A DNA stretch of 64,000 nucleotides from Candidatus Saccharicenans sp. (GCA_024653215.1 JANLFU010000002.1:147337-211336); one strand, 5' to 3'. Shown: positions 1 through 19,000, numbered from the stretch's first letter. Program-made: numbers and translations. Notes: generated by a model not told the origin, from the letters alone.

Positions 1-590
1 GCACCCTGGACAACTACGAAACCCACCATCCGACCCAGGGCGATGCCCTGAAGATTTCCAAGAAGTTCGTCAAGAATTATCCGGCCCAGGAAGTGGGCTT
101 GCTCTACATCGGTCCGTGCGGGGTGGGGAAGACCCACCTGGCAGTAGCGGTCATCAGGGAGCTCATCCTGAAGAAAGGGGCATACTGTATTTTTTATGAT
201 TTTAGGGAGCTAATCCGCGACATCCAGAACAGCTACACGCCGGACTCCGAGGTGAGCGAGACCGACATCCTGGCCCCGGTTTTTAACTGCGAGGTGCTGG
301 TGCTGGACGAGCTGGGGGCCAAGCGGCCGACGGCCTGGGTGGAAGAGACCATTTTTTACATCATAAACTACCGCTACAACCAGAAGCGGGTGACTATTTT
401 CACTTCAAATTACCTCGACATTGAGGAAGAGCCCGACCGGCGCGAGACCTACTACAAGAAGGGCGATGAAACCCTGGTGGACAGGATCGGGGTGAGGCTG
501 AGAAGCCGGCTATACGAGATGTGCAAGGTGGTAAATATAGCCGGCGAAGATTACCGCAAGGTTGCCCGCCAGGCCAGCTACCGCTTCTAA
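1..590 (+). CDS. DnaC/IstB-like AAA+ ATPase (5' end lies outside the window)
   Basis: The frame of ORF 93..590 stays open back to the window edge (TLDNYETHHPTQGDALKISKKF...). Walker A GPCGVGKTH, Walker B VLVLDELG, FTSN sensor-like motif. GC content matches the core genome. No IstA partner or terminal inverted repeats are visible. Confidence 0.7.
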   Translation, partial: TLDNYETHHPTQGDALKISKKFVKNYPAQEVGLLYIGPCGVGKTHLAVAVIRELILKKGAYCIFYDFRELIRDIQNSYTPDSEVSETDILAPVFNCEVLVLDELGAKRPTAWVEETIFYIINYRYNQKRVTIFTSNYLDIEEEPDRRETYYKKGDETLVDRIGVRLRSRLYEMCKVVNIAGEDYRKVARQASYRF

Positions 591-1174: not shown

Positions 1175-2059
1175 TTAAATGTTGTTAGCTTTTGTCAATT
1201 CAGTTTGGATTTCTTTCAAGGTTCTTCCCGAGGCATCCTTCCATTCGGTTCTTCCATTTGATTCATTTCCCAACACTATGCTTGCTGCCGCAGAGGGAGA
1301 ACTGAAAAGATAGTCTTGAGATAGCTGGTAATATTTTCCTTTATCTACAAAAACACCACTATCAATGAGCGCTTTTCTTATATATCTTGCATATCGGCTT
1401 AACGAAGGTACCTCTTCTTTAACAGCCATTGAATTAGCACAAACCACAAAGCCTTCAGCGCTCTCATATCCTTCTGCAGTTATTCCTTTAGATTTTATAA
1501 ACAGCTTTATGACATTCTTCACATGAGGTTTTGGCTTTTCGAAAAAGTTAATGCCAAGAACGGGCAGGCATGTCAACATTTCAGATAGAAAAGTTTCTAC
1601 ATCTACCGTATCTGCTTCTGATAAAGTTGGTAGCTGAGGAATATTACCATTATCAAGCACACATCTCTTGGCATCAGCGGCTAATGATATTAGTCTTGCC
1701 TCTAGGTACTGGACATGTGCCTTATTTAAATTGAGATCTTTGCTAATGTATACAATTGCATGTGTCCAGAAATCTTTATTTCGCATATGCTGATCGAGGC
1801 GGGGTAAAACCGGATCGCCTTCTCCAACATATATCCTTGGAAAGGAGTCTTTTTCTCCGGGGCCCATTAAAATATATACCCCTGTTTTTTTGAGTTCCTC
1901 TCTTTTACGGGCTTCAGCGAATAGTGCCCTTGGAAATGATATTCCTTGACCGGTCCAGTTTGATTTTTCGATTATTTTAATTCCGTCAGGTTCTCCTTGA
2001 GGCATAAATATTTTCAAGGAAAAACCTAATTTTGATTTATGCACTTCTTTCATTTTCAT
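1175..2059 (-). CDS. GIY-YIG-type nuclease family protein with DUF4357-like C-terminal domain
   Basis: 294 aa. It has a GVYILMG...RIYVGEGDPVLPRLDQH...FW motif block (GIY-YIG-like) and the C-terminal FSSPSAAASIVLGNESNGRTEWKD block typical of DUF4357. AT-rich, with a GGAGG Shine-Dalgarno upstream. Confidence 0.65.
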   Translation of the reverse strand: MKMKEVHKSKLGFSLKIFMPQGEPDGIKIIEKSNWTGQGISFPRALFAEARKREELKKTGVYILMGPGEKDSFPRIYVGEGDPVLPRLDQHMRNKDFWTHAIVYISKDLNLNKAHVQYLEARLISLAADAKRCVLDNGNIPQLPTLSEADTVDVETFLSEMLTCLPVLGINFFEKPKPHVKNVIKLFIKSKGITAEGYESAEGFVVCANSMAVKEEVPSLSRYARYIRKALIDSGVFVDKGKYYQLSQDYLFSSPSAAASIVLGNESNGRTEWKDASGRTLKEIQTELTKANNI

Positions 2060-2357: not shown

Positions 2358-2684
2358 ATGAGCGTTAAGAAGTTAATAGGACAACTTAAAGAAAAGAAAA
2401 AAAGAAATGAGAAGCTTCAAGAACTCAGGGCTGAAGAGGTTGAGAATATAATAGAGTTTTTTTTCGAGAAATATGAGCATAAGAGAGGTTCTCATATTAT
2501 TGTTCAGGACTCTCGATTAGAGAGATATGGGGAAATTAATCAATTGAGTGAGTATGGGCGGCTCGGGCAGTTAACTATACCCGTAAAGAGCGGGCAGAAA
2601 GTGAAATCTGTCTATGTAAGAAAATTAATCGAGGCTATAGAAATTTGTGAATTTATGGAGGGAAAAAGTGAAGAGGAAGATTGA
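2358..2684 (+). CDS. hicA: HicA-family toxin (mRNA interferase-like), N-terminally extended
   Basis: 108 aa. The pattern ...KRGSHIIVQD...LTIPVKSGQKVKSVYVRKLIEAI matches the HicA/YcfA signature (GSH ... IP ... basic patch). It lies directly upstream of, and overlaps, a HicB-like gene. Confidence 0.6.
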   Translation: MSVKKLIGQLKEKKKRNEKLQELRAEEVENIIEFFFEKYEHKRGSHIIVQDSRLERYGEINQLSEYGRLGQLTIPVKSGQKVKSVYVRKLIEAIEICEFMEGKSEEED

Positions 2685-3213
2685 AAAAAAAGATTTAGAA
2701 TATTACATGAAGCTGAAATATAAAATAGAAATTGTGCCGTTATCTGAAGAAGACGGGGGAGGATATGAAGCGAGGATCCCCCAGCTCGGGAAGGAAGCAT
2801 TTAGGGGATACGGTGAAACTGTCGAAGAGGCCCTGGGCCACCTAGAAGTTGTAAAAAAAGACCTATTTGAAAGGTACCTGAATAAGAGAGTTCCGATCCC
2901 AGAACCAGAGCTGAAAGAGGAAAAGTACAGTGGCCGGATTCTTCTGCGTATTCCGTTTTATTTGCATAGAGAATTGTCAGCGCTGGCGAAAAAAGAAGAT
3001 ATAAGCCTGAATCAGCTTCTTAATCATCTGATAGAGCGCGGCCTGGCTTCAGTTCGATATGATTTTCATGTTGAAGCTTTATCACAAATAAAGCCGGAAA
3101 TTATAGGTAAATGGGAAAAATGTATATTTGAGATAGATCAGAAAACTGTTCCGGAATCTTTATTTCATTATCATGGCGAATCTATAGATTTTGACAATAA
3201 ATCGGTTTGTTAG
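2668..3213 (+). CDS. hicB: HicB-family antitoxin (HicB N-domain + RHH DNA-binding domain) with a ~50-aa C-terminal extension
   Basis: MKLKYKIEIVPLSEEDGGGYEARIPQLG...GETVEEAL is HicB-like. YSGRILLRIPFYLHRELSALAKKEDISLNQLLNHLIERGL is RHH/CopG-like. The GTG at 2668 is preceded by GGAGGG (2657-2662). Alternative starts are GTG 2647 and ATG 2707. Confidence 0.65.
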   Translation: MKRKIEKKDLEYYMKLKYKIEIVPLSEEDGGGYEARIPQLGKEAFRGYGETVEEALGHLEVVKKDLFERYLNKRVPIPEPELKEEKYSGRILLRIPFYLHRELSALAKKEDISLNQLLNHLIERGLASVRYDFHVEALSQIKPEIIGKWEKCIFEIDQKTVPESLFHYHGESIDFDNKSVC

Positions 3214-3914: not shown

Positions 3915-5951
3915 GTGTCCGCTATGGAAAATGGTCAGTTAACCTGGATTACCAATTTCATTTGGGGTATTGCCGATGACGTGCTGCGCGATCTATATGT
4001 GCGCGGCAAGTACCGCGATGTTATCCTCCCGATGACTGTGATACGCCGGCTCGATGCCGTGCTGGAACCCACCAAGCAAGCGGTCCTGGAGATGAAAGCT
4101 TCACTCGATAGAGCAGGTATAACTAATCAGGATCTTGCTCTCCGCCAGGCTGCCGGACAAGCGTTTTACAACACATCGAAATTCACTTTACGTGATCTAA
4201 AGGCGCGTGCCAGTCGCCAGCAATTGGAGACGGATTTCCGTGCCTACCTGGACGGCTTCTCGCCTAATGTTCAGGAGATAATCGAGAAATTTGAATTTCG
4301 CAATCAAATCCCCCGCCTTAGCAAAGCCGATGCTCTGGGCACACTCATCGAAAAGTTTCTCGACCCATCCATCAACTTAAGCCCATACCCAGTGCTCAAC
4401 AGCGATGGTTCTGTGCGACTCCCCGGACTTGATAATCACGCCATGGGCACCATTTTCGAAGAACTGGTGCGGCGATTCAACGAGGAAAACAACGAAGAGG
4501 CAGGTGAACACTGGACCCCCCGCGATGCCGTGAGGCTGATGGCCCGCCTAATCTTTGAACCCATCGCTGAGAAAATTACCGATGGCACATATTTGCTTTA
4601 CGATGGGGCCTGTGGCACAGGCGGAATGCTCACCGTGGCTGAAGAAACACTAATCAGACTGGCAAAAGAACGCGGGAAACAGGTCTCGGTACACCTTTTC
4701 GGTCAAGAAATCAATGCAGAGACCTATGCTATCTGCAAAGCCGATCTGCTCCTGAAAGGAGAGGGGGAGGCTGCTGACAACATTGTTGGTGGACCAGAAT
4801 ATTCAACACTTTCGAACGATGCCTTCCCTGGCAGAACCTTCGACTTCATGCTCTCGAATCCGCCTTATGGGAAGAGCTGGAAAAGTGACCTGGAACGCAT
4901 GGGGGGCAAAACCGGCATTAAAGACCCGCGCTTTGTTGTACAGCACCAGGGCGAAGAGCTGTCTCTAATTACTCGCTCCAGTGATGGACAGCTTCTCTTT
5001 TTAGTGAACATGCTTTCCAAGATGAAGCATGATACCCCGCTCGGAAGCAGGATTGCCGAGGTGCACAATGGGTCATCGCTGTTTACTGGAGATGCCGGCC
5101 AGGGCGAGAGTAACATCCGACGCTGGATTATCGAAAACGATTGGCTTGAAGCCATCGTGGCCCTTCCACTCAATATGTTTTATAACACCGGCATTGCCAC
5201 GTACGTTTGGGTGCTAACCAACCGCAAGCCCGAGCACCGCAAAGGCCGCATCCAGCTAATCGATGCCACGCAGTGGTACAAGCCGTTGCGAAAAAATCTG
5301 GGCAAGAAAAATTGTGAGCTGTCTGAAGAAGACATCCGTCGCATCGTGGATACTTTTCACAAATTCGAGCAAAACGAGCAGTCAAAAATCTTTCCCATCG
5401 CTGCCTTTGGGTACTGGAAGATAACGGTAGAACGCCCCTTGCGCTTGAAAGGCATCGACCCCGAGCGTGAATACAGTGCTAAGGAGATTAAAGCACTTCG
5501 CGAAACTGCAGAGCGAGCTGATGATGCCCCACCATTGATAAAAAAGATTCACAAGCCCGGCACTGCACCCGATCCACTTCGCGGGCTGTTCGAGGTGACC
5601 ATTCACGGCAAATCGCGCGTAGTAGAATACGAACCGGATACGGAGCTCCGCGATAGCGAGCAGATTCCCTTCCTGGAATGCTCTGCCTGTCATCAGCCTG
5701 GTTATCTGCCGAACCTGGAAGACCGCCGGGCAGCCATAGAAACTTTCTTGCGGCGGGAAGTCCTGCCTTATGCACCGGATGCCTGGTATGTTCCAGAAAG
5801 TATCAAGGTGGGTTACGAGATTAATTTCAACCGCTATTTTTATAAGCCAAAAGCTTTGCGCAGCCTTGAGGAAATCCGCGCCGACCTTTTAGCGGTTGAA
5901 AAAGAGGCGGAGGGGCTTCTTAATGAAATAATGAAGGTAGCCGCAAAATGA
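3915..5951 (+). CDS. hsdM: Type I R-M DNA methyltransferase subunit M (N6-adenine)
   Basis: AdoMet motif YDGACGTGGML and catalytic LSNPPYGKSW. The HsdM_N-like N-terminus reads WGIADDVLRDLYVRGKYRDVILPMTVIRRLD, and the C-terminus has VGYEINFNRYFY. The start could instead be ATG 3924. Confidence 0.9.
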   Translation: MSAMENGQLTWITNFIWGIADDVLRDLYVRGKYRDVILPMTVIRRLDAVLEPTKQAVLEMKASLDRAGITNQDLALRQAAGQAFYNTSKFTLRDLKARASRQQLETDFRAYLDGFSPNVQEIIEKFEFRNQIPRLSKADALGTLIEKFLDPSINLSPYPVLNSDGSVRLPGLDNHAMGTIFEELVRRFNEENNEEAGEHWTPRDAVRLMARLIFEPIAEKITDGTYLLYDGACGTGGMLTVAEETLIRLAKERGKQVSVHLFGQEINAETYAICKADLLLKGEGEAADNIVGGPEYSTLSNDAFPGRTFDFMLSNPPYGKSWKSDLERMGGKTGIKDPRFVVQHQGEELSLITRSSDGQLLFLVNMLSKMKHDTPLGSRIAEVHNGSSLFTGDAGQGESNIRRWIIENDWLEAIVALPLNMFYNTGIATYVWVLTNRKPEHRKGRIQLIDATQWYKPLRKNLGKKNCELSEEDIRRIVDTFHKFEQNEQSKIFPIAAFGYWKITVERPLRLKGIDPEREYSAKEIKALRETAERADDAPPLIKKIHKPGTAPDPLRGLFEVTIHGKSRVVEYEPDTELRDSEQIPFLECSACHQPGYLPNLEDRRAAIETFLRREVLPYAPDAWYVPESIKVGYEINFNRYFYKPKALRSLEEIRADLLAVEKEAEGLLNEIMKVAAK

Positions 5952-8900
5952 AGGCTAAAATAGATTTTCCTGTTCGCCACATTTCCATTCGCGTCCCTTG
6001 GCATGACTCAGGATGGACTGGTGTCGTTTGCCGTGCACCCCACCTGAATGGTGCCTGTGCCAGGCTCAAGCGGATTGCTGATAACAAGAAAGAAGATCAG
6101 GAGCGCCTTATCGCCGGAAAACGTTTGGATGAATTACCCAGGGAGCAGTGGCCGTGTTGCGTGGATGAGCGATCCACTTTTATGGCGGAGTTTGAGCTGG
6201 AGGTTCTTAAGAAGCATGCCCTGGCAGAAATTAACCCAGATCAATATGGCCATTTCAAGCCGACACCGCAACGTTATCCGGCATATTCTGCCGGAATAGT
6301 TCCTTTTCAATGGATGATGCGACCGAACATAAATCATTACGGTAACCTTTATGATCTGGATGTTGACGAGGGCCGAGAGCCCAAACTGGGCTATGAGAGC
6401 AACTGGATTCATGAATTCCGAAATCAAAGGGCACTTCTAGAAGGTTTTGCCGCTCATTTGCGTGAAGAGGAATCGCTCTGTCTGTTCTATGCCAAGCACG
6501 TTCCCTTTGCAGAGGGTACGGGCCGAGTATTAATAGCGGTTGGACGAATCAACAAAATCGGCGAACTGATTGAGTACAATCGTGAGGGCCATGGTCCACC
6601 CGGCATGGTGTGGGAACGCCCGATTCAGCATTCCATCCGCCCAAAAGGTAACGACGGCTTCCTGATGCCTTACTATGAAGTTCTGGACCGTGCTGCGCAA
6701 GATAGCTCTCTCGATATGGAACGGTATACTGCTCGCGTTCCTGAAGAGCACTGGGATGAGTTCTCTTACGCCAGTGAATTGGTCACCAATGACGGTGCCA
6801 TTGGTGCTCTACTCTCAATGGACGCGGTGCTTGCTCGAATTGAAAACGAATTAGGAGTCGCAACTGGAGGGCAGCGCAAGTGGCTTCACGATGAACTTGT
6901 GCGCCTGTGGAAAGTACGTGGCCCATTCCCTGGTTTGGGAGCTGTTCTAACATCATTTGGCATGTCGCGAGGCTTATTCGTGGCTCATGCCATCCAGCAG
7001 AAAGCCGGAAAGAATGCTGATCCATGGCCACTTGTGGACAGGGCATTTTGCGAGCCGTCTTCTGTGCTGCCAAAAGAATTGCAACGTGATCTCAAGGAAC
7101 TCTGCCCGACTTGGAAAGGTCTCTCTGAAGAACGTCGTGACTTCCTGCGTCTGATAAGCCGATTTGAGATAACCGTAGAACAGGCCGAGAATCTTTATGA
7201 TGAAGATTCAAGAAAGAGGGCTGGATGGGGTGGCACTGACCGCGAAATACTACAAAACCCCTATCGTATCTTTGAGCTCAGCCGTCATGACTTTGAGGGA
7301 GTAAAGCTGTTGACAGTAGATCGCGGTGTTTTTCCTGATGATACCGTTCGGTTGCTGCATCCACTGGAAGAGCCATCCCGGCTGTGCTCGGCTGTTGATT
7401 GGCGGCGTATTCGAGCCTTTGCCGTCGCGGCCTTAGAAGATGCTGCTCTAAATGGTCATACCTTATTACCCAGGGACAAAGTCGTTGAGGCGATACGCAG
7501 TTATCCGATTAAACCCGAATGCCCCGTTACAAGTGACATCCTCACTGCTAACTCCAAGAATATGACGCCGGAAATTGTTCCGGTTGAGCTGGATGGTGAA
7601 AGCGGTTTTCAACTCGAAAGATACAAAAAAATCGGCGATGAAGTGCGCCGCCAGGTTCTTGGACGCCTTGCAGGTGGGCGGCATGTCGTCAAAGGCGACT
7701 GGAAAGCTTTGCTTGATGAGAAATTTGGTATTGCGAAGGACGATGAGGAGAAACGCGCCCGTGAAGAGAAAGCAGCTGCGCTGGCTGAGTTAGCAGAGGC
7801 ACGCTTCGGTGTCCTTGTTGGATCAGCCGGTACAGGAAAAACCTCTCTCTTGGGAATTCTTTGTGCTCAGCCAGAGATCAAAAAAGACGGTGTGTTGCTT
7901 CTTGCACCAACAGGGAAAGCTCGCGTCAGAATGCAAGAGCTGGTGGGTGCTGGGGCAAAAGCAATGACGATTGCTCAGTTCCTAAACCAGTGGAGTCGCT
8001 ATGATGGACGAAACGGGCGATATCACGTTAGCGATGGACCTAAAGCGAGCGGCTATGGCACAGTCATTGTGGATGAGTCATCTATGCTGACTGAAGACAT
8101 GCTAGGCGCAATATTTGATGCATTGCAAGGCGTTAAACGGTTCATCTTCGTTGGCGATCCCTCGCAATTACCGCCCATAGGGGCAGGGAAACCCTTTGTT
8201 GATATCATCGCCAAGATCCGCCCTTCTGACTGTGAGAGGCGATTCCCTCGCGTAGGCCCTGGTTATGCTGAACTCACGATTGAACGACGCCAGGGGGGGC
8301 AAGACCGTCCAGACCTGAGACTGGCGCGCTGGTTTAGCCTCTCACCTCCATCAGCTGGCGATGACGATGTATTCTTTGATGATGCGAAAGAGCATCCGAC
8401 AATTCGGTTTATCGAATGGAAGAAACCTGAAGATTTTCAGACCAAATTGCTGGAAGTGCTGGTACAGGAGCTCAAACTTTCCGGGATAGAGGATATACGG
8501 GGATTTAACAAAGCGATGGGGGCAACGGTCACAGAGAAATATGATTACTTTAACCCAACCCGCAATGGCAAGGTCAGTGCGGTCCAGGCAGTTGACGCAT
8601 GGCAGATCCTCAGCCCTTTGCGGGGCATGCCATTTGGCGTGGGCGATATCAACCGCCAAATTCACGAACGTTTCCGGGCTGGATTTCTAGAACTCGCAAG
8701 CCGGCATAGGCGTCATATTCCAAAGCCATTTGGAGCAGAGCGAATCGTTTATGGCGATAAGGTCATCAATTTGAGCAACCATCGTAGAGATGGCAAAAAA
8801 GTGTATCCCCAGGAAGGCGCGATAGGTTATCTTGCCAACGGCGAGATTGGCATCGTTGTCGGTCTGTGGAAGACAAATGGAAATCCAAAAATTCTAAAAG

Positions 8901-9646
8901 TCGAGTTCTCATCACAGCCCGGCTTTACTTACGATTTTTATAGTAACGATTTCGAAGAGGAAGGAGACCCGGTGTTGGAACTTGCCTATGCGCTTACCGT
9001 TCATAAGGCGCAGGGCAGTCAGTTTCGTCTTGTAATACTCGTCCTGCCAGAAGGTCACCCGATCATGTCAAGGGAGCTCGTTTATACCGCGCTTACCCGT
9101 CACCAGGACAGGATCGTGGTGATGCACCAGGGCCCACTAACCATACTAAAAGAGTTATCTGCTCCCCATCGTTCCGAGACCGCCCGTCGCATGACAAACC
9201 TGATGCAGCCGTGCAAGATGCTAGAGTTCCCACAAGCCAGGGGTAGCCTGTTTCTCCAGGAAGGTTTGATCCATCGCACCCGCAAAGGACTGGCCGTGCG
9301 CTCCCGTGCCGAAGTCATCATCGCAGACGCCCTGACCGACGCCAATGTCTCATTTGAATACGAGAAACCGCTTATGCTTGGCGGTTCAACCCGATATCCA
9401 GATTTCACCATTGAGGATGAAATCTCAGGCCGGACCTACTACTGGGAACATCTTGGGCTGCTCCATCGCGCTGACTACAGACGCAGTTGGAATGAGAAAC
9501 TCAAATGGTATCGAGATCACGGTATAAAACCTCGTGAGGAAGGCGGCGGGGTGAACGGCACACTGATCATTACCCGGGACAATGCTGATGGAGGAATTGA
9601 TTCACAATCGATTGCCAAAATCATCAAGGAGGTCTTCGGTGGCTGA
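5948..9646 (+). CDS. 1232-aa protein: unknown Cys-rich N-domain + RecD2/AAA_30-type SF1 helicase + PD-(D/E)xK-like C-domain
   Basis: The ATG overlaps the hsdM stop (ATGA, 5948-5951). Motifs: RecD2-type NPYRIFEL region, Walker A GSAGTGKTS (~7821-7847), VIVDESSML, FVGDPSQLPPIG (~8146-8185), TVHKAQGSQF. The C-terminal AEVIIADAL...YPDFTIED...YYWEHLG (~9300-9460) is restriction-endonuclease-fold-like. I recognise no family for residues 1 to ~330 (ISIRVPWHDSGWTGVVC...C...CC). Confidence 0.75.
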   Translation: MKAKIDFPVRHISIRVPWHDSGWTGVVCRAPHLNGACARLKRIADNKKEDQERLIAGKRLDELPREQWPCCVDERSTFMAEFELEVLKKHALAEINPDQYGHFKPTPQRYPAYSAGIVPFQWMMRPNINHYGNLYDLDVDEGREPKLGYESNWIHEFRNQRALLEGFAAHLREEESLCLFYAKHVPFAEGTGRVLIAVGRINKIGELIEYNREGHGPPGMVWERPIQHSIRPKGNDGFLMPYYEVLDRAAQDSSLDMERYTARVPEEHWDEFSYASELVTNDGAIGALLSMDAVLARIENELGVATGGQRKWLHDELVRLWKVRGPFPGLGAVLTSFGMSRGLFVAHAIQQKAGKNADPWPLVDRAFCEPSSVLPKELQRDLKELCPTWKGLSEERRDFLRLISRFEITVEQAENLYDEDSRKRAGWGGTDREILQNPYRIFELSRHDFEGVKLLTVDRGVFPDDTVRLLHPLEEPSRLCSAVDWRRIRAFAVAALEDAALNGHTLLPRDKVVEAIRSYPIKPECPVTSDILTANSKNMTPEIVPVELDGESGFQLERYKKIGDEVRRQVLGRLAGGRHVVKGDWKALLDEKFGIAKDDEEKRAREEKAAALAELAEARFGVLVGSAGTGKTSLLGILCAQPEIKKDGVLLLAPTGKARVRMQELVGAGAKAMTIAQFLNQWSRYDGRNGRYHVSDGPKASGYGTVIVDESSMLTEDMLGAIFDALQGVKRFIFVGDPSQLPPIGAGKPFVDIIAKIRPSDCERRFPRVGPGYAELTIERRQGGQDRPDLRLARWFSLSPPSAGDDDVFFDDAKEHPTIRFIEWKKPEDFQTKLLEVLVQELKLSGIEDIRGFNKAMGATVTEKYDYFNPTRNGKVSAVQAVDAWQILSPLRGMPFGVGDINRQIHERFRAGFLELASRHRRHIPKPFGAERIVYGDKVINLSNHRRDGKKVYPQEGAIGYLANGEIGIVVGLWKTNGNPKILKVEFSSQPGFTYDFYSNDFEEEGDPVLELAYALTVHKAQGSQFRLVILVLPEGHPIMSRELVYTALTRHQDRIVVMHQGPLTILKELSAPHRSETARRMTNLMQPCKMLEFPQARGSLFLQEGLIHRTRKGLAVRSRAEVIIADALTDANVSFEYEKPLMLGGSTRYPDFTIEDEISGRTYYWEHLGLLHRADYRRSWNEKLKWYRDHGIKPREEGGGVNGTLIITRDNADGGIDSQSIAKIIKEVFGG

Positions 9647-11042
9647 TAAGCCTGACATCGGAAACCTCAAGCCCTATCCCGCTTACAAAGACTCCGGGGT
9701 GCCATGGCTGGGCCAGGTGCCTGCGCATTGGGCGGTGGTGCGCTTGGGGGCCCTTCTGCGAGAACGCATGGAGTTTAACGATGATCTCCGTATTACCGAA
9801 GTTCTCTCAGTAACAAAACATCGGGGAGTAATTCCTTATAAAGAAAAAGGAAACATTGGAAATAAAAAGTCGGATGATATAACACGTTACAAAATTGTAA
9901 GACCAAATGACATTGTCGTTAACTGCATGAACGTGATCATTGGGTCTGTAGGATTGTCCAGACAAACAGGGTGCTTGAGTCCTGTATATTACGTACTCAT
10001 GCAGAGAACCGAAAATGATAATATTCTTTATTTAAACGCATGCTTTCAAACAAAACCATTTCAAGAAAGCCTTATCCGAATTGGTAACGGCATTTTAGCC
10101 CATCGTATGCGTATTCCGATGGAACTCTTGAAATGTGAGCCGTTTCCAAGACCCGCTGCCGAGGAACAGACCGGCATCGTCCGCTTTCTCGATTACGTGG
10201 ACCGGCGGATACGACGAGTGATCCGGGCGCGGCAAAGAAGGGTCAAGCTCCTTGAGGAATACAAGCAGGCACTCATCCACCAGGCTGTTACTGGCCAGAT
10301 CGATGTCCGCACCGGCAAACCCTATCCTGCTTACAAAGACTCCGGCGTGGAGTGGCTGGGCCAGGTGCCTGCGCATTGGGAGGTTAGGCGATTAAAATGT
10401 ATATGCCGACTTATTTATGGTGATGCATTACCGGAAGCATCTCGAAAAGATGGGGGGGTACCAGTATATGGTTCGAATGGTAGAGTTGGGTTTCACGATG
10501 TATCCAATACGCATTCACCTTGTATTATCTTAGGAAGAAAAGGGTCTTTCGGAAAAATTCAGTATTCTGATGTACCTGTTTTCGCAATTGATACAACTTA
10601 CTTTGTCGATAGCATAAACACAACGGTTAATTTAAGATGGCTTTTCTTTGTTCTTAATTGTGTGCGTCTGGATGAGGTATCTAAAGACTCCGCTGTCCCT
10701 GGTTTAGATCGTGAAGATGCCTACAGATGTTTATTACCTTTACCTCCTAACCCCGAACAAAATGCTATCGTAGAATACCTCAATGTTCTTACAGCTAAGA
10801 TCGATACAGTCATTGCCGCCTCTCAACGAGAGATTGAGCTTCTGCGAGAGTATCGCGAGCGAATCATCGCCGATGTCGTTACAGGCAAGGTGGATGTGCG
10901 TGAGGTGGCGGCAAAGTTACCTGAGGAGCCACCAGAGGAGATTGAATTGATGGAAGAGGATGAATTAGCCGAGAGTAAGGAAGAAAATCGGGAGGAAGGC
11001 GATGGCTTTACAGAAGAAATATCTGAGGAGGATGACCGATGA
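9639..11042 (+). CDS. hsdS: Type I R-M specificity subunit S (two TRDs)
   Basis: The repeated conserved block KPYPAYKDSGV(P/E)WLGQVPAHW precedes each AT-rich target-recognition domain. The central and C-terminal coiled-coil conserved regions read EYKQALIHQAVTGQIDVR and EYRERIIADVVTGKVDVR. GTG 9639 overlaps the upstream stop (GTGGCTGA). The listed ATG 9582 would overlap by 65 nt. Confidence 0.9.
   Translation: MADKPDIGNLKPYPAYKDSGVPWLGQVPAHWAVVRLGALLRERMEFNDDLRITEVLSVTKHRGVIPYKEKGNIGNKKSDDITRYKIVRPNDIVVNCMNVIIGSVGLSRQTGCLSPVYYVLMQRTENDNILYLNACFQTKPFQESLIRIGNGILAHRMRIPMELLKCEPFPRPAAEEQTGIVRFLDYVDRRIRRVIRARQRRVKLLEEYKQALIHQAVTGQIDVRTGKPYPAYKDSGVEWLGQVPAHWEVRRLKCICRLIYGDALPEASRKDGGVPVYGSNGRVGFHDVSNTHSPCIILGRKGSFGKIQYSDVPVFAIDTTYFVDSINTTVNLRWLFFVLNCVRLDEVSKDSAVPGLDREDAYRCLLPLPPNPEQNAIVEYLNVLTAKIDTVIAASQREIELLREYRERIIADVVTGKVDVREVAAKLPEEPPEEIELMEEDELAESKEENREEGDGFTEEISEEDDR
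9669..9732 (+). repeat. hsdS internal direct repeat, copy 1 (64 bp)
   Basis: aagccctatcccgcttacaaagactccggggtgccatggctgggccaggtgcctgcgcattggg. About 58/64 nt are identical to 10317..10380. Confidence 0.9.
10317..10380 (+). repeat. hsdS internal direct repeat, copy 2 (64 bp)
   Basis: aaaccctatcctgcttacaaagactccggcgtggagtggctgggccaggtgcctgcgcattggg. Confidence 0.9.
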
Positions 11043-14000
11043 AACCAACCGACACCAGCGAAGCCGGGCTTGAGAGCCTGATCTGCCGGGCACTTACCGG
11101 CAGTGATTGCCTGCCCCGGCCCATCGGGACCTCATCAGCTGTTGGTGAAACACCGGCGCCCTCCAGCCATGCGGGCTGGATTCCTGGTGACCCTTCTGAT
11201 TACGATCGGGAGTACTGCGTTGACTTAGTTCAGCTTTCGGCCTTTCTCCGCTCAACTCAGCCTGAAGTCGCTGAAGCTCTCGACCTGAACAATGACAGCC
11301 CTACGCGGCGTAAGTTTCTGGCTCGGCTGCAGGGTGAAATTAGTAAGCGCGGCGTGGTGGATGTATTGCGCAAGGGAATTCAACACGGGCCATACAGCAT
11401 CGATCTTTTCTACGGTACACCTTCTCCTGGAAATGAGCAGGCCCGAGCGCGGTATGAACAAAACCGCTTCTCTGTTACGCGACAACTCCGATACAGCAGA
11501 GAAGAAACGCAGCGGGCGCTGGACATTGTGCTATTTATCAACGGTTTGCCGATTTTTACATTTGAGCTCAAAAATCGCCTCACAAAACAGACTGTATATG
11601 ATGCTATCGAGCAATACAGGCGTGACCGTGACCCGCACGAAAAATTATTTGAATTGGGGCGTTGTTTGGCGCACTTTGCGGTTGATGATAATGAGGTCTA
11701 TTTTTGCACACACCTTAAGGGTAAGGCGTCCTGGTTTCTGCCCTTCAACAAGGGATGGAATGACGGTGCCGGAAATCCACCAAATCCAAATGGCATAATG
11801 ACCGATTATCTCTGGCGGCAGGTTCTCAGCAGAGAAAGTCTGACCAACATCCTGGAAAACTATGTACAACTCATTGAGGAAAAGGACCAAACAACAGGCA
11901 AGAAGCGGAGGAGGCAGATCTTCCCCCGCTATCACCAGCTTGATGTAGTGAGAAAACTCTTAGCAGATGTGGCGGCGAATGGAGTCGGCCGAAGGTATCT
12001 CATTCAGCATTCTGCCGGGAGCGGTAAATCTAACTCCATTGCCTGGCTGGCCCACCAGATGATTGGCCTCGAAAGGGAAGGTAAGCCCATTTTTGATTCT
12101 ATTATCGTTGTAACCGACAGGCGGATCCTGGACCAGCAAATCAAGGACACGGTCAAACAATTCGCTCAGGTGAGTGCCACGGTTGGGCATGCCGAGCGTT
12201 CTGGCGACCTGCGGCAGTTTATCGAGAGCGGAAAAAAGATCATTATAACAACGCTTCAGAAGTTCCCGTTTATCCTTGATGATATTGGCAACGAACATCG
12301 CAACCGCAACTTTGCCATAATAATCGACGAAGCACACTCGAGCCAAGGTGGCCGCACCACAGCCAAAATGCACAAGGCCCTGTCCAAGGCAGGTCAAGAG
12401 GGCGATGATGAGACATTTGAAGATAAGATAAATAGATTAATAGAGGCTCGGAAGCTTTTACCTAATGCCAGCTACTTTGCCTTCACTGCTACGCCGAAGA
12501 ACAAGACACTGGAGATGTTTGGTAAACCCGACCCACAACCTGACGGCACGATCAAACACAGACCTTTTCATTGCTATACCATGAAGCAGGCGATCCAGGA
12601 AGGATTTATCCTGGATGTACTGGCTAACTACACGCCGATAAAGAGCTACTACAAACTTGTCAAAAAGATCGAGGACGACCCGGAATTTGATGTAAAAAAA
12701 GCGCAAAAGAAGCTACGCAGATTTGTGGAAAATCACGATTATGCTATCCGGCTCAAGGCCGAAATAATGGTTGACCACTTTCATGAACAGGTGATTGCGA
12801 AAGGCAAGATTGGTGGTCAGGCCAGGGCGATGGTTGTGACCGATGGAATAGAGAAAGCAATTCAGTATTTCCATGCCTTTCAGGCTTACCTGGCCGAAAG
12901 AAAAAGCCCCTATCGGGCCATAGTTGCTTTCTCCGGCGAGCATGATTTTGGCGGGCAAAAGGTTACCGAGGCCAGTCTTAATGGCTTCCCTTCGAACCAG
13001 ATTGCTGACAAGATTCGGGAAGAGCCTTATCGGTTTTTAATCTGTGCTGATAAATTTCAGACGGGCTATGATGAGCCCCTTATGCATACCATGTACGTGG
13101 ATAAAGTATTATCCGGTGTCAAGGCAGTACAGACACTTTCGCGTCTTAATCGTGCCCATCCCCAGAAACATGACACATTCATCCTGGATTTCATCAACGA
13201 CCCGGAGACGATCCGGATGGCTTTTGAACCGTACTACAGAAGCGCTATCCTCGCTGACGAGACCGATCCAAATAAGTTGCACGACCTCAAAGGTGAGCTT
13301 GACCGTTATGAGGTATATGCCTCTCAGCAGGTTGATGAACTGGTCAAGCTATACCTTGGCGGGGCAGACCGCGACAAGCTCGATCCCATCCTGGACGGTT
13401 GTGTGGCGAGATATGTCGAGCTCGATGAGGACGGTCAAGTTGATTTTAAGGCTAAAGCCAAAGTGTTTATTCGTACATATAGCTTCTTGTCCTCCATTCT
13501 CCCATACACTAATGCTGCTTGGGAGAAACTATCCATTTTTCTCAATTTCCTTGTACCCAAGCTGCCGGCACCGAAGGAAGAAGATTTATCCAAGGGCATT
13601 CTCGAAGCTATCGATATGGACAGCTACCGGATCGAGAAGCAGGCGAGCATGCGGATCATTCTTTCAGATGAAGATGGTGAGATAGAACCTGTACCCGGTA
13701 TGGGCGGAGCACGCAAGCCAGAACCTGTACTTGATCGTCTTTCGAATATCATCAAGGCTTTCAACGAACAATTTGGTAATATACCCTGGAGTGACGCCGA
13801 TCGGGTCCGGAAGCTGATCATTGAAGAGATTCCAGCTCTTGTGGCAGCGGACACTGCTTATCAAAATGCACGAAAGTATTCTGATAAACAGAATGCCAGA
13901 ATAGAGCACGATAAAGCACTTATTCGAGTAATAACGAACCTGTTCAAAGATGATGCCGAACTATTTAAGCAATTCAGCGACAATGAATCGTTCCGACGGT

Positions 14001-14053
14001 GGCTGACGGACACAGTATTTTCATTGACTTACAGCCAGGCTGGTAACCAGTGA
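11039..14053 (+). CDS. hsdR: Type I restriction endonuclease subunit R (SF2 translocase + N-terminal nuclease)
   Basis: The ATG overlaps the hsdS stop (ATGA, 11039-11042). Nuclease motif DIVLFINGLPIFTFELKN, Walker A HSAGSGKSNS, DEAH box IIIDEAHSSQ, then TATPKNKT and QTLSRLNR. Confidence 0.9.
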   Translation: MKPTDTSEAGLESLICRALTGSDCLPRPIGTSSAVGETPAPSSHAGWIPGDPSDYDREYCVDLVQLSAFLRSTQPEVAEALDLNNDSPTRRKFLARLQGEISKRGVVDVLRKGIQHGPYSIDLFYGTPSPGNEQARARYEQNRFSVTRQLRYSREETQRALDIVLFINGLPIFTFELKNRLTKQTVYDAIEQYRRDRDPHEKLFELGRCLAHFAVDDNEVYFCTHLKGKASWFLPFNKGWNDGAGNPPNPNGIMTDYLWRQVLSRESLTNILENYVQLIEEKDQTTGKKRRRQIFPRYHQLDVVRKLLADVAANGVGRRYLIQHSAGSGKSNSIAWLAHQMIGLEREGKPIFDSIIVVTDRRILDQQIKDTVKQFAQVSATVGHAERSGDLRQFIESGKKIIITTLQKFPFILDDIGNEHRNRNFAIIIDEAHSSQGGRTTAKMHKALSKAGQEGDDETFEDKINRLIEARKLLPNASYFAFTATPKNKTLEMFGKPDPQPDGTIKHRPFHCYTMKQAIQEGFILDVLANYTPIKSYYKLVKKIEDDPEFDVKKAQKKLRRFVENHDYAIRLKAEIMVDHFHEQVIAKGKIGGQARAMVVTDGIEKAIQYFHAFQAYLAERKSPYRAIVAFSGEHDFGGQKVTEASLNGFPSNQIADKIREEPYRFLICADKFQTGYDEPLMHTMYVDKVLSGVKAVQTLSRLNRAHPQKHDTFILDFINDPETIRMAFEPYYRSAILADETDPNKLHDLKGELDRYEVYASQQVDELVKLYLGGADRDKLDPILDGCVARYVELDEDGQVDFKAKAKVFIRTYSFLSSILPYTNAAWEKLSIFLNFLVPKLPAPKEEDLSKGILEAIDMDSYRIEKQASMRIILSDEDGEIEPVPGMGGARKPEPVLDRLSNIIKAFNEQFGNIPWSDADRVRKLIIEEIPALVAADTAYQNARKYSDKQNARIEHDKALIRVITNLFKDDAELFKQFSDNESFRRWLTDTVFSLTYSQAGNQ

Positions 14054-14150: not shown

Positions 14151-15299
14151 TTATATACTTAAGAACTGACTAAAGCTCATATTTAAATTGAGCTCTTTTA
14201 ATATAGACATTACGGTTCCTACAGGGATATCTTTTGTATGTTTTGGGATAGGTATTCTTTTGCCACTAGATGATTGCCAAATTACATGAGAGCCGTTGCC
14301 TTGTCTTTGAAGCTTTATGTTTTTAAGCTTTTTGAGCTTTTTTATGAGCTCTTTGTATCTTATTGATCTGATATGTTTAGGAACTATATTCCATATCATA
14401 GATTTACTATTTATCAGATAGCAAACCTGGTCGATTCGGATTAAAGGAGTAAGGGCATGGGTAAACATTGTCCATATTTCTTTTGACCTATAATTAGAGG
14501 AAATGGCATATTTCATTAAATTATCGATGAAAAGTAGCTGATATTCTTGTTCTTGTTGATTAGTGTAAATATCATATGCTTTCCTATAACCAGGAGGGTT
14601 TCCTTTTACATATAAAAGCAGAGCTTCTAAAAGATTATATTTTTCCGTTTTTTCAGAAACATTATTATTAATATAGTCAAAAGTTTTACTGATTAATTTT
14701 ACGTTTGCCAGTGCTTCTTCAAGACAATCGTCTTTATCAGCTGTTTTGGCATAATAATCATTAAAAGCAGTAACATAGATCTTTTTCATGTGGGTTAATT
14801 CTAATTTAGCTGCAAAGCTTTCAACAGCACTATGAAATGCCTCGTGATAAAATAACGCATGCATTGCTATTTTAGGGAAATATTTTATATCAGGTAAATT
14901 TTTAGTTGGGTAAAGCTTGATTAAGCGCTGAGCAAGTATAAATATTCCTTCCAATGATATGTATATGCCCCATTTATCCGGGTAGTACTCATGGAATGGA
15001 AGATAAAAAGCCAAGGCATCAGGGGGTGGAGTTACGTCTCCTTTTGGAAGGGGGACGGGGCTTCCTGGCTTCTTAATTTTAGCTCCAAAAACGCTTAAAT
15101 CAAATAGCGGCTCCGAAAAAGTTATGTTATTAATTGCAAAATATTGGCTTTCAAATAATTCTTGGAATAGTCCATCGAAATCCAAGTTATCGGGGGACAA
15201 GATAATCCAATTGGAATCTTCGCTTTGAGGGAAATTTTTCAGTGAAAATACCTCTGGTAAATCTTGGTAAAGGGCATCAATCTTCTTTTGGGTATCCAT
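14151..15299 (-). CDS. Fusion protein: ~310-aa HExxH domain (possibly ImmA/IrrE-like) + C-terminal HicA-like domain
   Basis: 382 aa, about 30% GC. HEAFH is encoded at 14832-14846, followed about 35 aa later by CLEEALAN (compare the ExxAN of M78 peptidases). The C-terminal ~65 aa, QGNGSHVIWQSSSGKRIPIPKHTKDIPVGTVMSILKELNL, match the HicA/YcfA signature. GGAGGAATTATTA precedes the ATG. No HicB-like ORF is adjacent. Confidence 0.55.
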   Translation of the reverse strand: MDTQKKIDALYQDLPEVFSLKNFPQSEDSNWIILSPDNLDFDGLFQELFESQYFAINNITFSEPLFDLSVFGAKIKKPGSPVPLPKGDVTPPPDALAFYLPFHEYYPDKWGIYISLEGIFILAQRLIKLYPTKNLPDIKYFPKIAMHALFYHEAFHSAVESFAAKLELTHMKKIYVTAFNDYYAKTADKDDCLEEALANVKLISKTFDYINNNVSEKTEKYNLLEALLLYVKGNPPGYRKAYDIYTNQQEQEYQLLFIDNLMKYAISSNYRSKEIWTMFTHALTPLIRIDQVCYLINSKSMIWNIVPKHIRSIRYKELIKKLKKLKNIKLQRQGNGSHVIWQSSSGKRIPIPKHTKDIPVGTVMSILKELNLNMSFSQFLSI

Positions 15300-16099
15300 T
15301 AATAATTCCTCCTAAAATAAGGCATTTTTAAGGATAAATTAATTAGTCAAAATCATTAATTTTGTCAATAAGATGAACTCTTACCGGTTGTGCCGGTTTA
15401 ATATTTAATTTGGTATTGTTGAAAATTGTTCAAAATATATCATCAGCATTCTATTGATTTTCAATATCATTTTGCTGAATGAGCCAGCGACCGTTATGAA
15501 ACCTTGATGAATGTTTCTGGCCTGATATAGGTACAACCTTTAGCCCACTATCATTAAATAAGAGGCGAGAAGCCTCTGGTGCGAGCACAGAAGGAAATAC
15601 TCCTACCAACAGGTTCCTTAGTTTATCTTGCTGATGCCCTTATAAATCATATTGGTGGAAGAGATACATCGTTTGCCGACCTTCATAAAGCTTATAGGGC
15701 CGAATAGAATCTCGCAGGCCTTTCCCCGGGCAGCTAATAGCTTTAAGAGGTTAGTATATTGGTTTAGCCAATCAAGTCGGCACCAAAGCTTGACTGAAAT
15801 ATTAAAGAATTTGAACAGTATAAATATAAAAATTAATCTGTAAATTATATAAATATCACCCTTAAAATCATCGGAGGGGGTGATGAAATCAATAATCAGC
15901 ATTATTTATCTTTTTTGTGATTTTATTTCGCTCTAATGGGCACAAATGGGCAGAGATTGCATACCTCAGCTATCTGGTGTGATTGATGTTATGTGCGGGA
16001 ATGTGAACGAGTTGGTTGATCAGACTGCTGAATGTTGTCCTTTCAATACCATTTCTTTGCATTAGCAATATCTGTAAAAAATGCTATTGGAGTTTGCTA

Positions 16100-19000
16100 A
16101 TGATTGATCTGGAAAGTCGCATTATCCAGGCACTTGAAGCCAGACCTGGACAGAAAGCTAGTCAACTTGCCGATTCCCTTGGCGTTGACAAGAGACGGGT
16201 GAATTCATTGCTATATAATTCACTGAAAAGTCTAGTACACCAGGATCAACACTATCGCTGGTATCTAAGAAAGTCATCTAAGAATGACAAACAGAGCGAT
16301 GAAAGCCCAAAACGCTTGGATACACCTCTCGCCAAGCTTTGCGCATACTATTTGGATTGTTTGAGTTACGATGACTTGGGTGGGATTAGCGAATTTGCTT
16401 CCTCATTATATGGCCAACCTGCTTATATTGAGTTGGCCTCATTGCCGATTTTAGATAAAGGCGGTACAGATCCTTTCGACTCGGAAAGCGGACGGAAACT
16501 TCTCAAAAGTGTTAGACGAGATAAAAATAGACAAATGATCTTGCTGGGATATCCAGTACTTCTAAATCTGATACGTTCTAATAAGTCGGACTGGGAAGGA
16601 TTTAAAGTAGAGCCAATCTTTCTCTTCTCATATCAAATGGATGCCGGCAAAGACTCGAAGCCCACGCTGAGCGATGACTTGCCGCAGATCAATTTTCGAG
16701 CATTACGCTCTCTGCTGGGCACAGGCGAAACGAACTTGATGGAGGAGGCTATTCAGCTTGCTAAAGAGCTTGGACTGGGAAATATAAATGGTGAACAGCC
16801 TGATCTGGATGAGTTGTTCGTACGACTACGAGAAATCCGTCCAGAATGGAGCTGGCAAGAGGAAATAGATCCCTATGTCCTTAGCAATGGCATTCCGCTG
16901 GCCGACTTGAAGGAGCCAGGTATTTACAATCGTGCAATTCTCGTTGCGGCCGAGCGCTCTCCATACACAAAAGGATTAGAATCAGAGCTCGCAATGTTAC
17001 AGTCAGTCGAAGAGAACAATTATCGCCAGACATCGCTTGGAAGTTGGCTTACGAGACAAAAAATTGAATCACCGCCCTCTGACCAACAGGTACTCTTAGA
17101 AGTTCTGCCGTTGAATAGTGAGCAGCGGCAAGCTGTAAGGCAGGCTCTCTCAAATCCTTTGACGGTCATTACTGGCCCACCTGGAACCGGTAAGTCGCAG
17201 GTTGTTACATCGATCCTCATTAATGCCGCATGGCAAGGAAAATCCGTTTTGTTCGCCAGTAAAAATAATAAGGCTGTTGATGTCGTGCATACCAGGGTCA
17301 ACTCGCTAGGGCCGCGCCCCGTGTTACTTCGACTTGGGGCGAACGATTACCAGGCGCAACTCTCAGATCACCTAACATCTTTACTCGCTTCTTCTGCAAC
17401 TGAGGAAGATCACGAGCGATACAACAAATACAAGGCTGATCATATAGAACTATTGAAGAAATCAGATGCTTTAGATAGGGCTTTTCAGGAATTGGTGCAG
17501 CTTCGAAATGAAGTTGATGCTCTTGAGCAGCGTGTCGAGCAGTCAAGGCGCGACATGGGAGAGGAAATCTTTGCGCGGACCAGGTTTATAGATAGGAAAG
17601 AGTTGGATATATTGTCAACACGCGTACTTGAAAATATAAATCAAGCAGACAGGGCTAAACAATCCTTTTTTGTAAAATTTCTCTGGCCCTTCGTCAGAAA
17701 AAAGCGATTCAAAAAATTGAATTTGGCCATTCTTTCTTTCCGCGAAATGGCATTAAGGCTGGGCCTGCCACTACCTGAGAGGGCTGTGGATTCAACCACG
17801 ATTAATGAGTGGATTGACTATGGTTCAAAATTAGTTAATAGAATTTCTCAAGTAGCAGAAGCCCAACAGTATTTCAATAAACTAGATTTGCTTAGCAATG
17901 GCCATACCATTGAGGAGCTAAGTCGGTTACGGAATCAGCTCACCAAGGATTTATCCGTCAACTCAAAGGAATTGTGGCAGGCATGGCTGCGAATTCAGCC
18001 GGCTCGCTTAAATCCCGAACAGCGCAAGCTAATTGGCGAATACAGTTCACTGCTTCAGATGATTGTATTTGCAAATGAACAGAACCGTCAGTTGGACCGG
18101 GATGTGCTACGGCGGTATAACCAGCTATTCCCACAGATAACATCAATCCTTCCATGTTGGGCCGTTACATCACTTTCCACTCATGGGCGCGTACCTTTCG
18201 AGCCGAACTACTTTGACCTCCTCGTGATTGACGAGGCCAGCCAGTGTGATATCGCCTCTGCAATTCCTCTTTTATACAGAGCCCGCCGAGTCGTCGTGAT
18301 CGGAGACCCGATGCAGCTCCGGCACATCAGCACCCTGTCCAAACAACAAGATCAGCAATTATTGAGCAAACACGAGTTAACTGATGGCTATCTGGGATGG
18401 GCTTACTCGACTCGATCATTATTTGATCTCGCCAGCAGCCTTTGCCGGAGTGAGGACATAGTCGACCTGCGCGACCATCATCGTTCACATGCGGATATTA
18501 TTAATTTCTCAAATGAGATATTTTATGAGGGCCGACTTCGGGTGGCGACACGTTATGACAACTTGCGCCGCCCTAGACCTGATGAGCCAGCAGTGCGGTG
18601 GATTCACGTTGAAGGAAAAACCATACGTCCAAAAACAGGTGGAGCCGTTAATCAAGAGGAAGCCCGCCGGGTTGTTGATGAGCTCCAACGCCTGTTAAAC
18701 CAAGGGTATAGGGGTAGTGTAGGTGTAGTCAGTCCATTTAGGGCACAAGCTAATTTAATCCGGGATTTGGTATTTCAAAATGAAAATCTAAGCTCAAGGC
18801 TGTCCAATCTAGACTTTCTAGTAGACACTGTCCACAAATTTCAGGGAGACGAAAGAGACGTGATGATATTTTCCCCTGTGGTGTCGATAGGAGTTCCCGA
18901 CACAGCTTTGGGCTTCCTTAGAAGTAATCCGAATCTTTTCAATGTTGCCATTACCAGGGCGCGAGCTGCTCTTGTGGTTGTCGGGGACCACATGGCAGCA

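Follow-up and report, generated by a model that had tools for sequence, protein, structure and literature searches.

The gene at positions 5948-9646 (plus strand) of a 64,000-nucleotide stretch of DNA from Candidatus Saccharicenans sp. (GCA_024653215.1 JANLFU010000002.1:147337-211336; hereafter the window) encodes a 1232-residue member of PDC-S68, a family of candidate defence proteins. It joins an N-terminal module (N-module), a superfamily 1B (SF1B) RecD-like helicase and a C-terminal nuclease domain, three modules that always occur together and are jointly conserved. In the window, the gene is nested within a type I restriction-modification (R-M) operon. We lean, by no wide margin of confidence, towards PDC-S68 being an autonomous enzyme directed against mobile elements, in which the N-module and the helical region behind it would select DNA, the motor would move along it, and the nuclease would degrade it. 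The family is already catalogued and is not new. We regard the finding as a helpful annotation that yields a good candidate for testing, rather than as the discovery of a new kind of system, and the truly unexplained part of the protein is its N-module.

The open reading frame (ORF) starts with an ATG, ends with a stop codon at 9644-9646, and is the longest over that stretch. The JGI gene call on the source metagenome contig (Ga0417229_000017, 328 kb) is identical. The PADLOC profile of PDC-S68 (PDLC05065) matches the protein almost from end to end (E = 0, 1521.4 bits, residues 8-1230 against profile positions 4-1219 of 1221), and two other S68 models match it as well (2.4e-149 and 2.1e-119). 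The PDC families are a set of 145 candidates proposed by "guilt-by-embedding", from the location of members within BREX, DISARM or type I R-M loci (Payne, Hughes, Fineran and Jackson 2024, bioRxiv 10.1101/2024.01.29.577857). The window gene is embedded in this way, as are four of the relatives described below (loci L003, L013, L016 and L020), and DrmD-like SNF2 genes occur among the neighbours of PDC-S68. We searched the literature and found no paper naming, describing or experimentally testing PDC-S68; papers testing other PDCs did not cover it. An initial annotation of the window, made from the sequence alone, had described a 1232-residue three-part protein with the logic of a single-protein defence system. 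The ORF is real, the architecture stands, and the full-length PDC-S68 match and the defence-island context agree with that logic. The motifs it quoted all occur in the translation where it had placed them: HISIRVPWHD (residues 11-20), PCC (69-71), LFYAKH (179-184) and VLIAVGRI (194-201) in the N-terminal part; NPYRIF (437-442), GSAGTGKTS (625-633), DESSM (709-713), GDPSQLPPIG (736-745) and HKAQGSQF (1019-1026) in the middle; YPDFT (1150-1154) and YWEHLG (1165-1170) in the C-terminal part. The cataloguing of the family in PADLOC and the translational coupling of the gene within a type I R-M operon were not part of that annotation.

The operon is encoded on the plus strand in the order hsdM, PDC-S68, hsdS, hsdR. 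The methyltransferase gene hsdM (3915-5951) is identified by Pfam N6_Mtase (1.2e-52), HsdM_N (4.3e-23) and PADLOC MTase_I (3.5e-243), the specificity gene hsdS (9582-11042) by Pfam Methylase_S and PADLOC Specificity_I (5.6e-88), and the restriction gene hsdR (11039-14053) by Pfam HSDR_N, ResIII, SWI2_SNF2 and T1R_D3-like domains together with TIGR00348 (2.2e-64). The stop codon of hsdM and the start codon of PDC-S68 overlap in an ATGA, and the same is true of hsdS and hsdR. If hsdS began at the ATG at 9582, it would overlap the PDC-S68 gene by 65 nt. Its true start is probably the GTG at 9639, a codon that is preceded, at a distance of 6 nt, by a strong AAGGAGG site and that overlaps the PDC-S68 stop by 8 nt (GTGGCTGA). 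The overlaps along the operon are then 4, 8 and 4 nt, and the GC content of the PDC-S68 gene equals that of its flanks, so the gene is integrated into the operon, co-transcribed and translationally coupled with its neighbours.

The core of the motor spans residues 601-1060 (7748-9127, plus strand). Pfam assigns AAA_30 (7.7e-25, 88.2 bits for a cut-off of 27) and AAA_19 (2.8e-21, 76.5 bits for 25.1) to residues 608-756 and UvrD_C_2 (1.6e-11, 44.3 bits for 27.4) to residues 1012-1057. The helicase motifs are intact: GSAGTGKTS (Walker A, 7820-7846), DESSM (Walker B, 8072-8086), GDPSQLPPIG (motif III, 8153-8182), HKAQGSQF (motif V, 9002-9025) and YTALTR (motif VI, 9083-9100). Their key residues are kept in 68-69 of 69 aligned sequences, i.e., the window protein and 68 full-length cluster representatives that are 33-55% identical to it. 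The closest solved helicases are RecD2 of D. radiodurans (3e1s, 2.4e-25) and RecD of E. coli (1w36_D). Pfam, the NCBIfam RecD2 model and the PDB relatives thus agree on an SF1 helicase of the RecD2/AAA_30 type, as had been annotated. The range given for it (residues ~430-1080) is reasonable but generous relative to the Pfam core. The protein scores 186.3 bits against the RecD2 equivalog TIGR01448, far from its cut-off of 500 (and 149 bits against TIGR01447, recD, with a cut-off of 310), and we therefore class the motor by sequence as an SF1B RecD-like helicase that is not an orthologue of RecD2.

Between the N-module and this core, residues 286-600 (6803-7747, plus strand) comprise a helical linker and the N-terminal accessory region of the helicase. 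The alignment to TIGR01448 begins at residue 484 and that to phrog_4412 at residue 404. The NPYRIF motif falls in this region. The segment GPFPGLGAVL (residues 325-334) looks, in its sequence, like a helix-hairpin-helix motif, although the Pfam scan gave no helix-hairpin-helix match in the linker region.

The N-module itself (residues 1-285; 5948-6802, plus strand) was called unrecognised in the initial annotation, and it remains so after a broader search. Pfam gave no match at E<=10, whether we scanned residues 1-594 or 22 members of the family, and the NCBIfam and PHROG scans gave none either. A profile search (hmmsearch) against PDB sequences returned coiled-coil noise only. The AlphaFold model of residues 1-435 is confident (mean predicted local distance difference test (pLDDT) 89.9, predicted template modelling score 0.83) and shows an alpha/beta module at residues ~1-280 followed by an all-helical region at 281-435; Foldseek found no match to the module in PDB or BFVD at E<=1e-3. 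Conservation was studied in 30 homologues and, separately, in the 69 sequences introduced above. C28, C37 and C71 are present in 66-68 of the 69, H11 in 65 and H228 in all of them, and the five residues are invariant or nearly so in the 30 homologues too. The initial annotation had pointed to conserved cysteines and histidines, including a CC pair; these five bear it out, whereas C70, the first cysteine of the pair, is not conserved and is mostly Pro in relatives. Five tryptophans (W18, W23, W122, W153, W222) and a series of polar residues (R15, D20, N34, E52, E74, E144, N159, K183, R193, E223, R231) are also near-invariant. We take the Cys/His pattern not to be due to chance. Since three cysteines and a histidine are near-invariant, it suggests a candidate Cys3-His zinc site; a candidate Fe-S site is less likely.

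A beta-rich segment of the N-module had been guessed to resemble the PUA/EVE readers of modified bases, and this guess found no support. None of the EVE, ASCH, YTH, SRA or other PUA-clan families of Pfam was found in 22 N-core members at E<=10. The alignment (hhalign) of the N-core with an EVE profile reached a probability of 0.13%, which is the level of the negative control (0.11%, with the nuclease alignment). The latter result is not a strong negative, because the EVE profile, built from PF01878 proteins, is shallow and holds vertebrate THYN1 only. What remains is a Foldseek match that is the best in PDB without being significant (E = 0.3, probability 0.18, template modelling (TM) scores 0.13/0.32, root-mean-square deviation 11 Å), to MJECL36 (2p5d), to which a review attributes a YTH-like fold with an aromatic cage (PMC6112328).

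The C-terminal domain (residues ~1100-1232; 9245-9643, plus strand) was recognised neither by Pfam at E<=10 (residues 1060-1232) nor by sequence searches of PDB; structure prediction was more informative. The AlphaFold model drew on 27 homologues, and its core has pLDDT values of 87-96; in it, the predicted elements (H71-82, E93-95, E98-100, E104-108, E113-120, H126-141, E155-161) form the alpha-beta-beta-beta-alpha-beta core of the PD-(D/E)xK fold. The best Foldseek matches in PDB are nucleases and nuclease-like proteins of this kind: Bax1 (6p4w_B, E = 5.1e-4, probability 0.99), Card1 (6xl1, 1.00), XisH (2inb, 0.99) and the R2 restriction-like endonuclease (R2 RLE, 8gh6, 0.98), together with Cdn1, Cas4-family proteins, Hjc and viral cap-snatching endonucleases. 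Seven residues are invariant (E1122, E1139, D1152, E1167, H1168, K1184, Y1188), and for E1122, D1152, E1167, H1168 and K1184 this amounts to 68-69 of the 69 sequences. E1122 is on helix 1, D1152 on strand 2 (PDF), E1167 and H1168 on strand 3 (WEH), and K1184 and Y1188 on the helix that follows. The restriction-endonuclease-like fold given in the initial annotation is thus supported by Foldseek and by conservation, and the acidic and lysine residues on which it had made this reading depend are indeed conserved. A specific likeness to TnsA or Vsr was rejected: there was no TnsA, Vsr or DUF559 match in Pfam at E<=10, and none of the top 50 Foldseek matches was a TnsA or Vsr structure.

We then asked how far this architecture extends. 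A profile of the N-core matches at least 1612 representatives at 50% identity, 368 of them at E<=1e-30. We read the context of the best 150 of these 1612 matches: the module is nearly always at the N-terminus of a protein of ~1250 residues, and the full-length proteins (~1200-1300 residues) have the same three parts. The database names obtained for full-length proteins are 'AAA family ATPase' and 'hypothetical protein'. The initial annotation had proposed looking for the N-domain outside helicase contexts; among these 150, there were only proteins of the same architecture, fragments, or terminally extended forms. The short matches are fragments or frameshifted copies, and those on long contigs are frameshifted. 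Some members carry extra domains after the nuclease, as in P0248, where residues 1255-1390 match Schlafen AlbA_2 (1.7e-20), a module found in other defence-related proteins. P0263, P0308 and P0365 have C-terminal extensions of ~230-330 residues without Pfam match, and P0268 has an N-terminal extension (residues 1-538) without assignment.

In a scan of 185,579 species genomes (one per species), relatives of PDC-S68 were found at no fewer than 581 loci, each in a different species genome. They occur in Verrucomicrobiota, Lentisphaerae, Chloroflexota, Acidobacteriota, Proteobacteria, Planctomycetota, Cyanobacteria, Actinomycetota and Bacillota, and in the archaeal Methanoregula. The distribution is patchy and sequences are 66-79% identical across the boundaries of phyla and domains, which points to horizontal mobility of PDC-S68, as expected for defence genes. 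We retrieved 80 loci and counted neighbours in 74 of them. Every complete copy among the 80 has the N-module, the helicase and the nuclease in an ORF of ~1220-1300 codons, and the short forms are truncated or frameshifted. An R-M or defence gene lies within three ORFs in at least 41 of the 74 loci, with very few exceptions on the same strand. The count is a minimum, only recurring neighbour clusters having been annotated.

Two types of R-M loci host the gene repeatedly. The order hsdM-X-hsdS(-hsdR), where X is PDC-S68, recurs in L003, L013, L016 and L020. The four-gene arrangement is found in Lentisphaerae, Thermoanaerobaculia and Methanoregula, with HsdM 73-74%, HsdR 64-67% and HsdS ~30% identical. 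Between the window and the locus of a Methanoregula sp. metagenome-assembled genome (L016, 7668-19047), HsdM is 73% identical, X 62-69% across its three parts and HsdR 67%. HsdS is only 29% identical while its operon partners are alike, and this points to a transfer of the four-gene unit between domains of life, with swapping of specificity. The second host is a cluster with the order SNF2 helicase, DUF4391, PDC-S68, type III methyltransferase, one further gene, type III restriction enzyme. It is present in L006 (4812-19637), L007, L015, L018, L019 and L027, and the relatives in it are equally close to the window protein. Its SNF2 helicase corresponds to the PADLOC family 'HKD+Snf2' C3a139 and is DrmD-like. 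We found no name for the SNF2-DUF4391-mod-res cluster in a literature search on DUF4391; MANTIS/Gao_RL was considered and is a different system. Other copies of PDC-S68 immediately follow mod-res, hsdMSR, DRT1a, TmtA-like or type ISP genes, and serine recombinases are found within two ORFs in three loci.

These associations are not obligatory. Type I R-M systems accompany the gene in only ~6 of the 80 loci, and among 117 immediate neighbours, any one PADLOC family occurs at most 4 times. Because no partner recurs more often than this, the neighbourhoods fit a stand-alone system.

The PDC-S68 gene of the window lies in a defence island of ~20 kb, and the remainder of the window encodes ordinary metabolism. 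Just upstream of the island, at the left edge of the window, is the 3' part of an IS21-type IstB helper ATPase gene (93-590, plus strand), which may be the boundary of the island or its mobility vehicle. The island includes a second candidate of the "guilt-by-embedding" type, PDC-S14 (1175-2059, minus strand; 294 residues, PADLOC 9.5e-104), whose C-terminal part is a DUF4357 domain. A HicB-like gene (2647-3213, plus strand), found by domain scan, is the only one of its kind and is ~11 kb from the hicA-like gene, which lies across the R-M operon (14151-15299, minus strand). The product of the latter is an unpaired and unusual HicA fusion of 382 residues, in which the toxin domain is confined to residues 315-372, after a long N-terminal region without assignment. 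A second helicase-nuclease of 1142 residues (16016-19444, plus strand) combines an SF1 helicase (AAA_11/AAA_12) with a C-terminal MTES_1575/DUF559 Vsr-like nuclease. It has partial PADLOC matches to MkoC/MkoA, PDC-S37 and Hhe, and NCBIfam matches to ProA, PLuB and Hhe that are far below cut-offs; its first ~345 residues are without assignment.

How would PDC-S68 act? In the model that we favour, the N-module, held together or activated by a Cys3-His-type metal site, would recognise invader DNA or a DNA feature specific to infection, and the helical, possibly helix-hairpin-helix, DNA-binding region that follows it would contribute to the selection of the target. The SF1B motor would then translocate along single-stranded DNA in the 5'->3' direction usual for RecD-family helicases, and the PD-(D/E)xK nuclease would degrade the DNA. 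Within the hsdM-X-hsdS-hsdR operon, PDC-S68 would probably provide a second layer of restriction that works independently of the type I enzyme, rather than being one of its subunits.

Several points weigh against this model. About 45% of the loci have no recognised defence neighbour (with only recurring neighbour clusters annotated), and the literature search found no experimental anti-phage evidence for any PDC-S68 member. The sensor role of the N-module is purely inferred: since many of its polar residues are near-invariant, including H11 and H228, the module could instead be an enzyme. In the nuclease, the strand-3 position at which PD-(D/E)xK enzymes carry their lysine is L1169 (E1167-H1168-L1169). 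Because this position, two after the acidic residue, is a leucine, the catalytic lysine is presumably K1184 on the next helix, a substitute that is only presumed; the invariant H1168 and K1184 may replace the missing lysine of the triad. Finally, the window protein has R1120 (9302-9304) where 66 of the 69 aligned sequences have a lysine. Residue 1120 belongs to the helix-1 motif of the nuclease, which reads VRSRAE in the window and VRSKSE in relatives.

The alternatives differ in what the protein would sense and for whom it would work. A more specific version of the defence model is that of a modification-dependent, type IV-like restriction enzyme, whose N-module would be a reader of the PUA superfamily (EVE/YTH/ASCH-like). 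Its aromatic cage would capture a modified base in phage DNA, upon which the module would load the motor and set off cleavage. The top Foldseek match of the module is to the YTH-like MJECL36, it has the five near-invariant tryptophans along with Y181, F238 and Y242, and the strand pattern 'LCLFYAK...RVLIAVGRI' resembles, at the level of sequence, the strands of EVE domains. The genes are also co-located with R-M systems based on methyltransferases, which is reminiscent of E. coli, where type IV enzymes are encoded next to type I systems. Yet the structural match is not significant, the PUA clan is absent from the Pfam scan of 22 members, and the hhalign score against EVE (a shallow profile) is that of the control; we consider this version unlikely. 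We give no more credit to the idea that PDC-S68 is an accessory or guard of the R-M system comparable to PrrC, which would be activated when a phage disables the R-M complex or would extend the processing of DNA cut by it. It would explain the position of the gene between hsdM and hsdS, where stop and start codons overlap, the maintenance of the four-gene arrangement in Lentisphaerae, Thermoanaerobaculia and Methanoregula, and the embedding of close relatives in a second type of R-M locus (SNF2-DUF4391-X-mod-res). It also has a precedent in PrrC, whose gene is found almost only inside type I R-M systems. However, most homologues of PDC-S68 are neither inside nor adjoining an R-M system, there is no recurring partner, and the R-M types that embed the gene differ (I and III-like), which makes a specific partnership between proteins unlikely.

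The horizontal spread of the family could also mean that it serves the elements that carry it, as a helicase-nuclease of conjugation or replication or as a factor of competition between elements on islands. The patchy distribution, the IstB fragment that flanks the island, the serine recombinases close to three loci, and weak matches to the helicase domains of TraA and TraI go in this direction. These matches are nevertheless restricted to the P-loop helicase core (73 bits for a cut-off of 590), the protein has no relaxase domain, and the adjoining genes mostly concern restriction and defence rather than transfer, so that we judge such a function to be quite improbable. A housekeeping enzyme of repair or recombination, like Dna2, AddAB or RecD2, is the least credible. 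Dna2, which associates an SF1B helicase, a PD-(D/E)xK nuclease and a Cys cluster, has a similar domain logic, and RecD2 and RecD are the closest relatives of the motor in sequence. But the score is well below the equivalog cut-off of RecD2 (186 for 500 bits), the gene is found in a few hundred of the 185,579 species genomes scattered across phyla, lies in defence islands and R-M operons, and is frequently decayed. Finally, there is a bolder form of the favoured model, which we regard as speculative: the N-module would be a new fold with a Cys3-His metal centre, sensing a DNA feature of infection beyond those of the described readers, for instance a certain modification, an end or structure of the DNA, or a product of R-M evasion. 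PDC-S68 would then constitute a new class of restriction enzymes that translocate with the energy of ATP and that bacteria and archaea have repeatedly placed in type I and type III-like R-M operons as a back-up.

If the N-module proved to be such a sensor of DNA or infection, it would bring a new principle of recognition to single-protein restriction and could account for the repeated insertion of the gene inside R-M operons. The module is confidently modelled and yet has no counterpart in Pfam, PDB or BFVD, while the family to which it belongs is large and widely dispersed (at least 1612 clusters at 50% identity and at least 581 species genomes, in Bacteria and Archaea). The constant architecture, the near-invariant residues and the compactness of a single gene make it a practical target for experiments.

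Compared with known systems, PDC-S68 shares parts with several. RecD2 and RecD (3e1s, 1w36_D) have in common with it the superfamily, the set of motifs, the RecD2-like 1A/2A core and UvrD_C_2, but RecD2 lacks the N-module of ~285 residues and the C-terminal nuclease. Nhi/AbiO is similar in outline, in that a single polypeptide combines an SF1 helicase and a nuclease for phage defence; it differs in the order of the domains and in the family of the nuclease, and Nhi has no N-module. Membership in Nhi/AbiO was rejected, the matches (Nhi 8.5e-05, 19.4 bits; AbiO 0.0023, 14.7 bits) being limited to residues 618-740 around the P-loop. The C-terminal domain has its best structural matches in Bax1, which is associated with XPB and also works with a helicase partner, and in nucleases of the Card1/Can2 type (Foldseek probabilities 0.93-1.00). 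These share with it only 11-18% identity, with TM scores of 0.34-0.39 on the query, the triad lysine of the window protein is apparently displaced, and the PDB sequence search gave no nuclease match for this domain. The type IV enzymes of the SauUSI type gather a nuclease, a helicase and a reader of modified bases in one ATP-dependent chain. They offer a possible analogy for a sensor-motor-nuclease arrangement at restriction loci, with an SF2 instead of an SF1B helicase, a phospholipase D-type (PLD) instead of a PD-(D/E)xK nuclease, and a reader of modified bases where the N-module of PDC-S68 gives no evidence of one. With the PDC-S68 family itself, the window protein has in common both the end-to-end match to its hidden Markov model and the embedding in a type I R-M system, and we saw no difference between the two.

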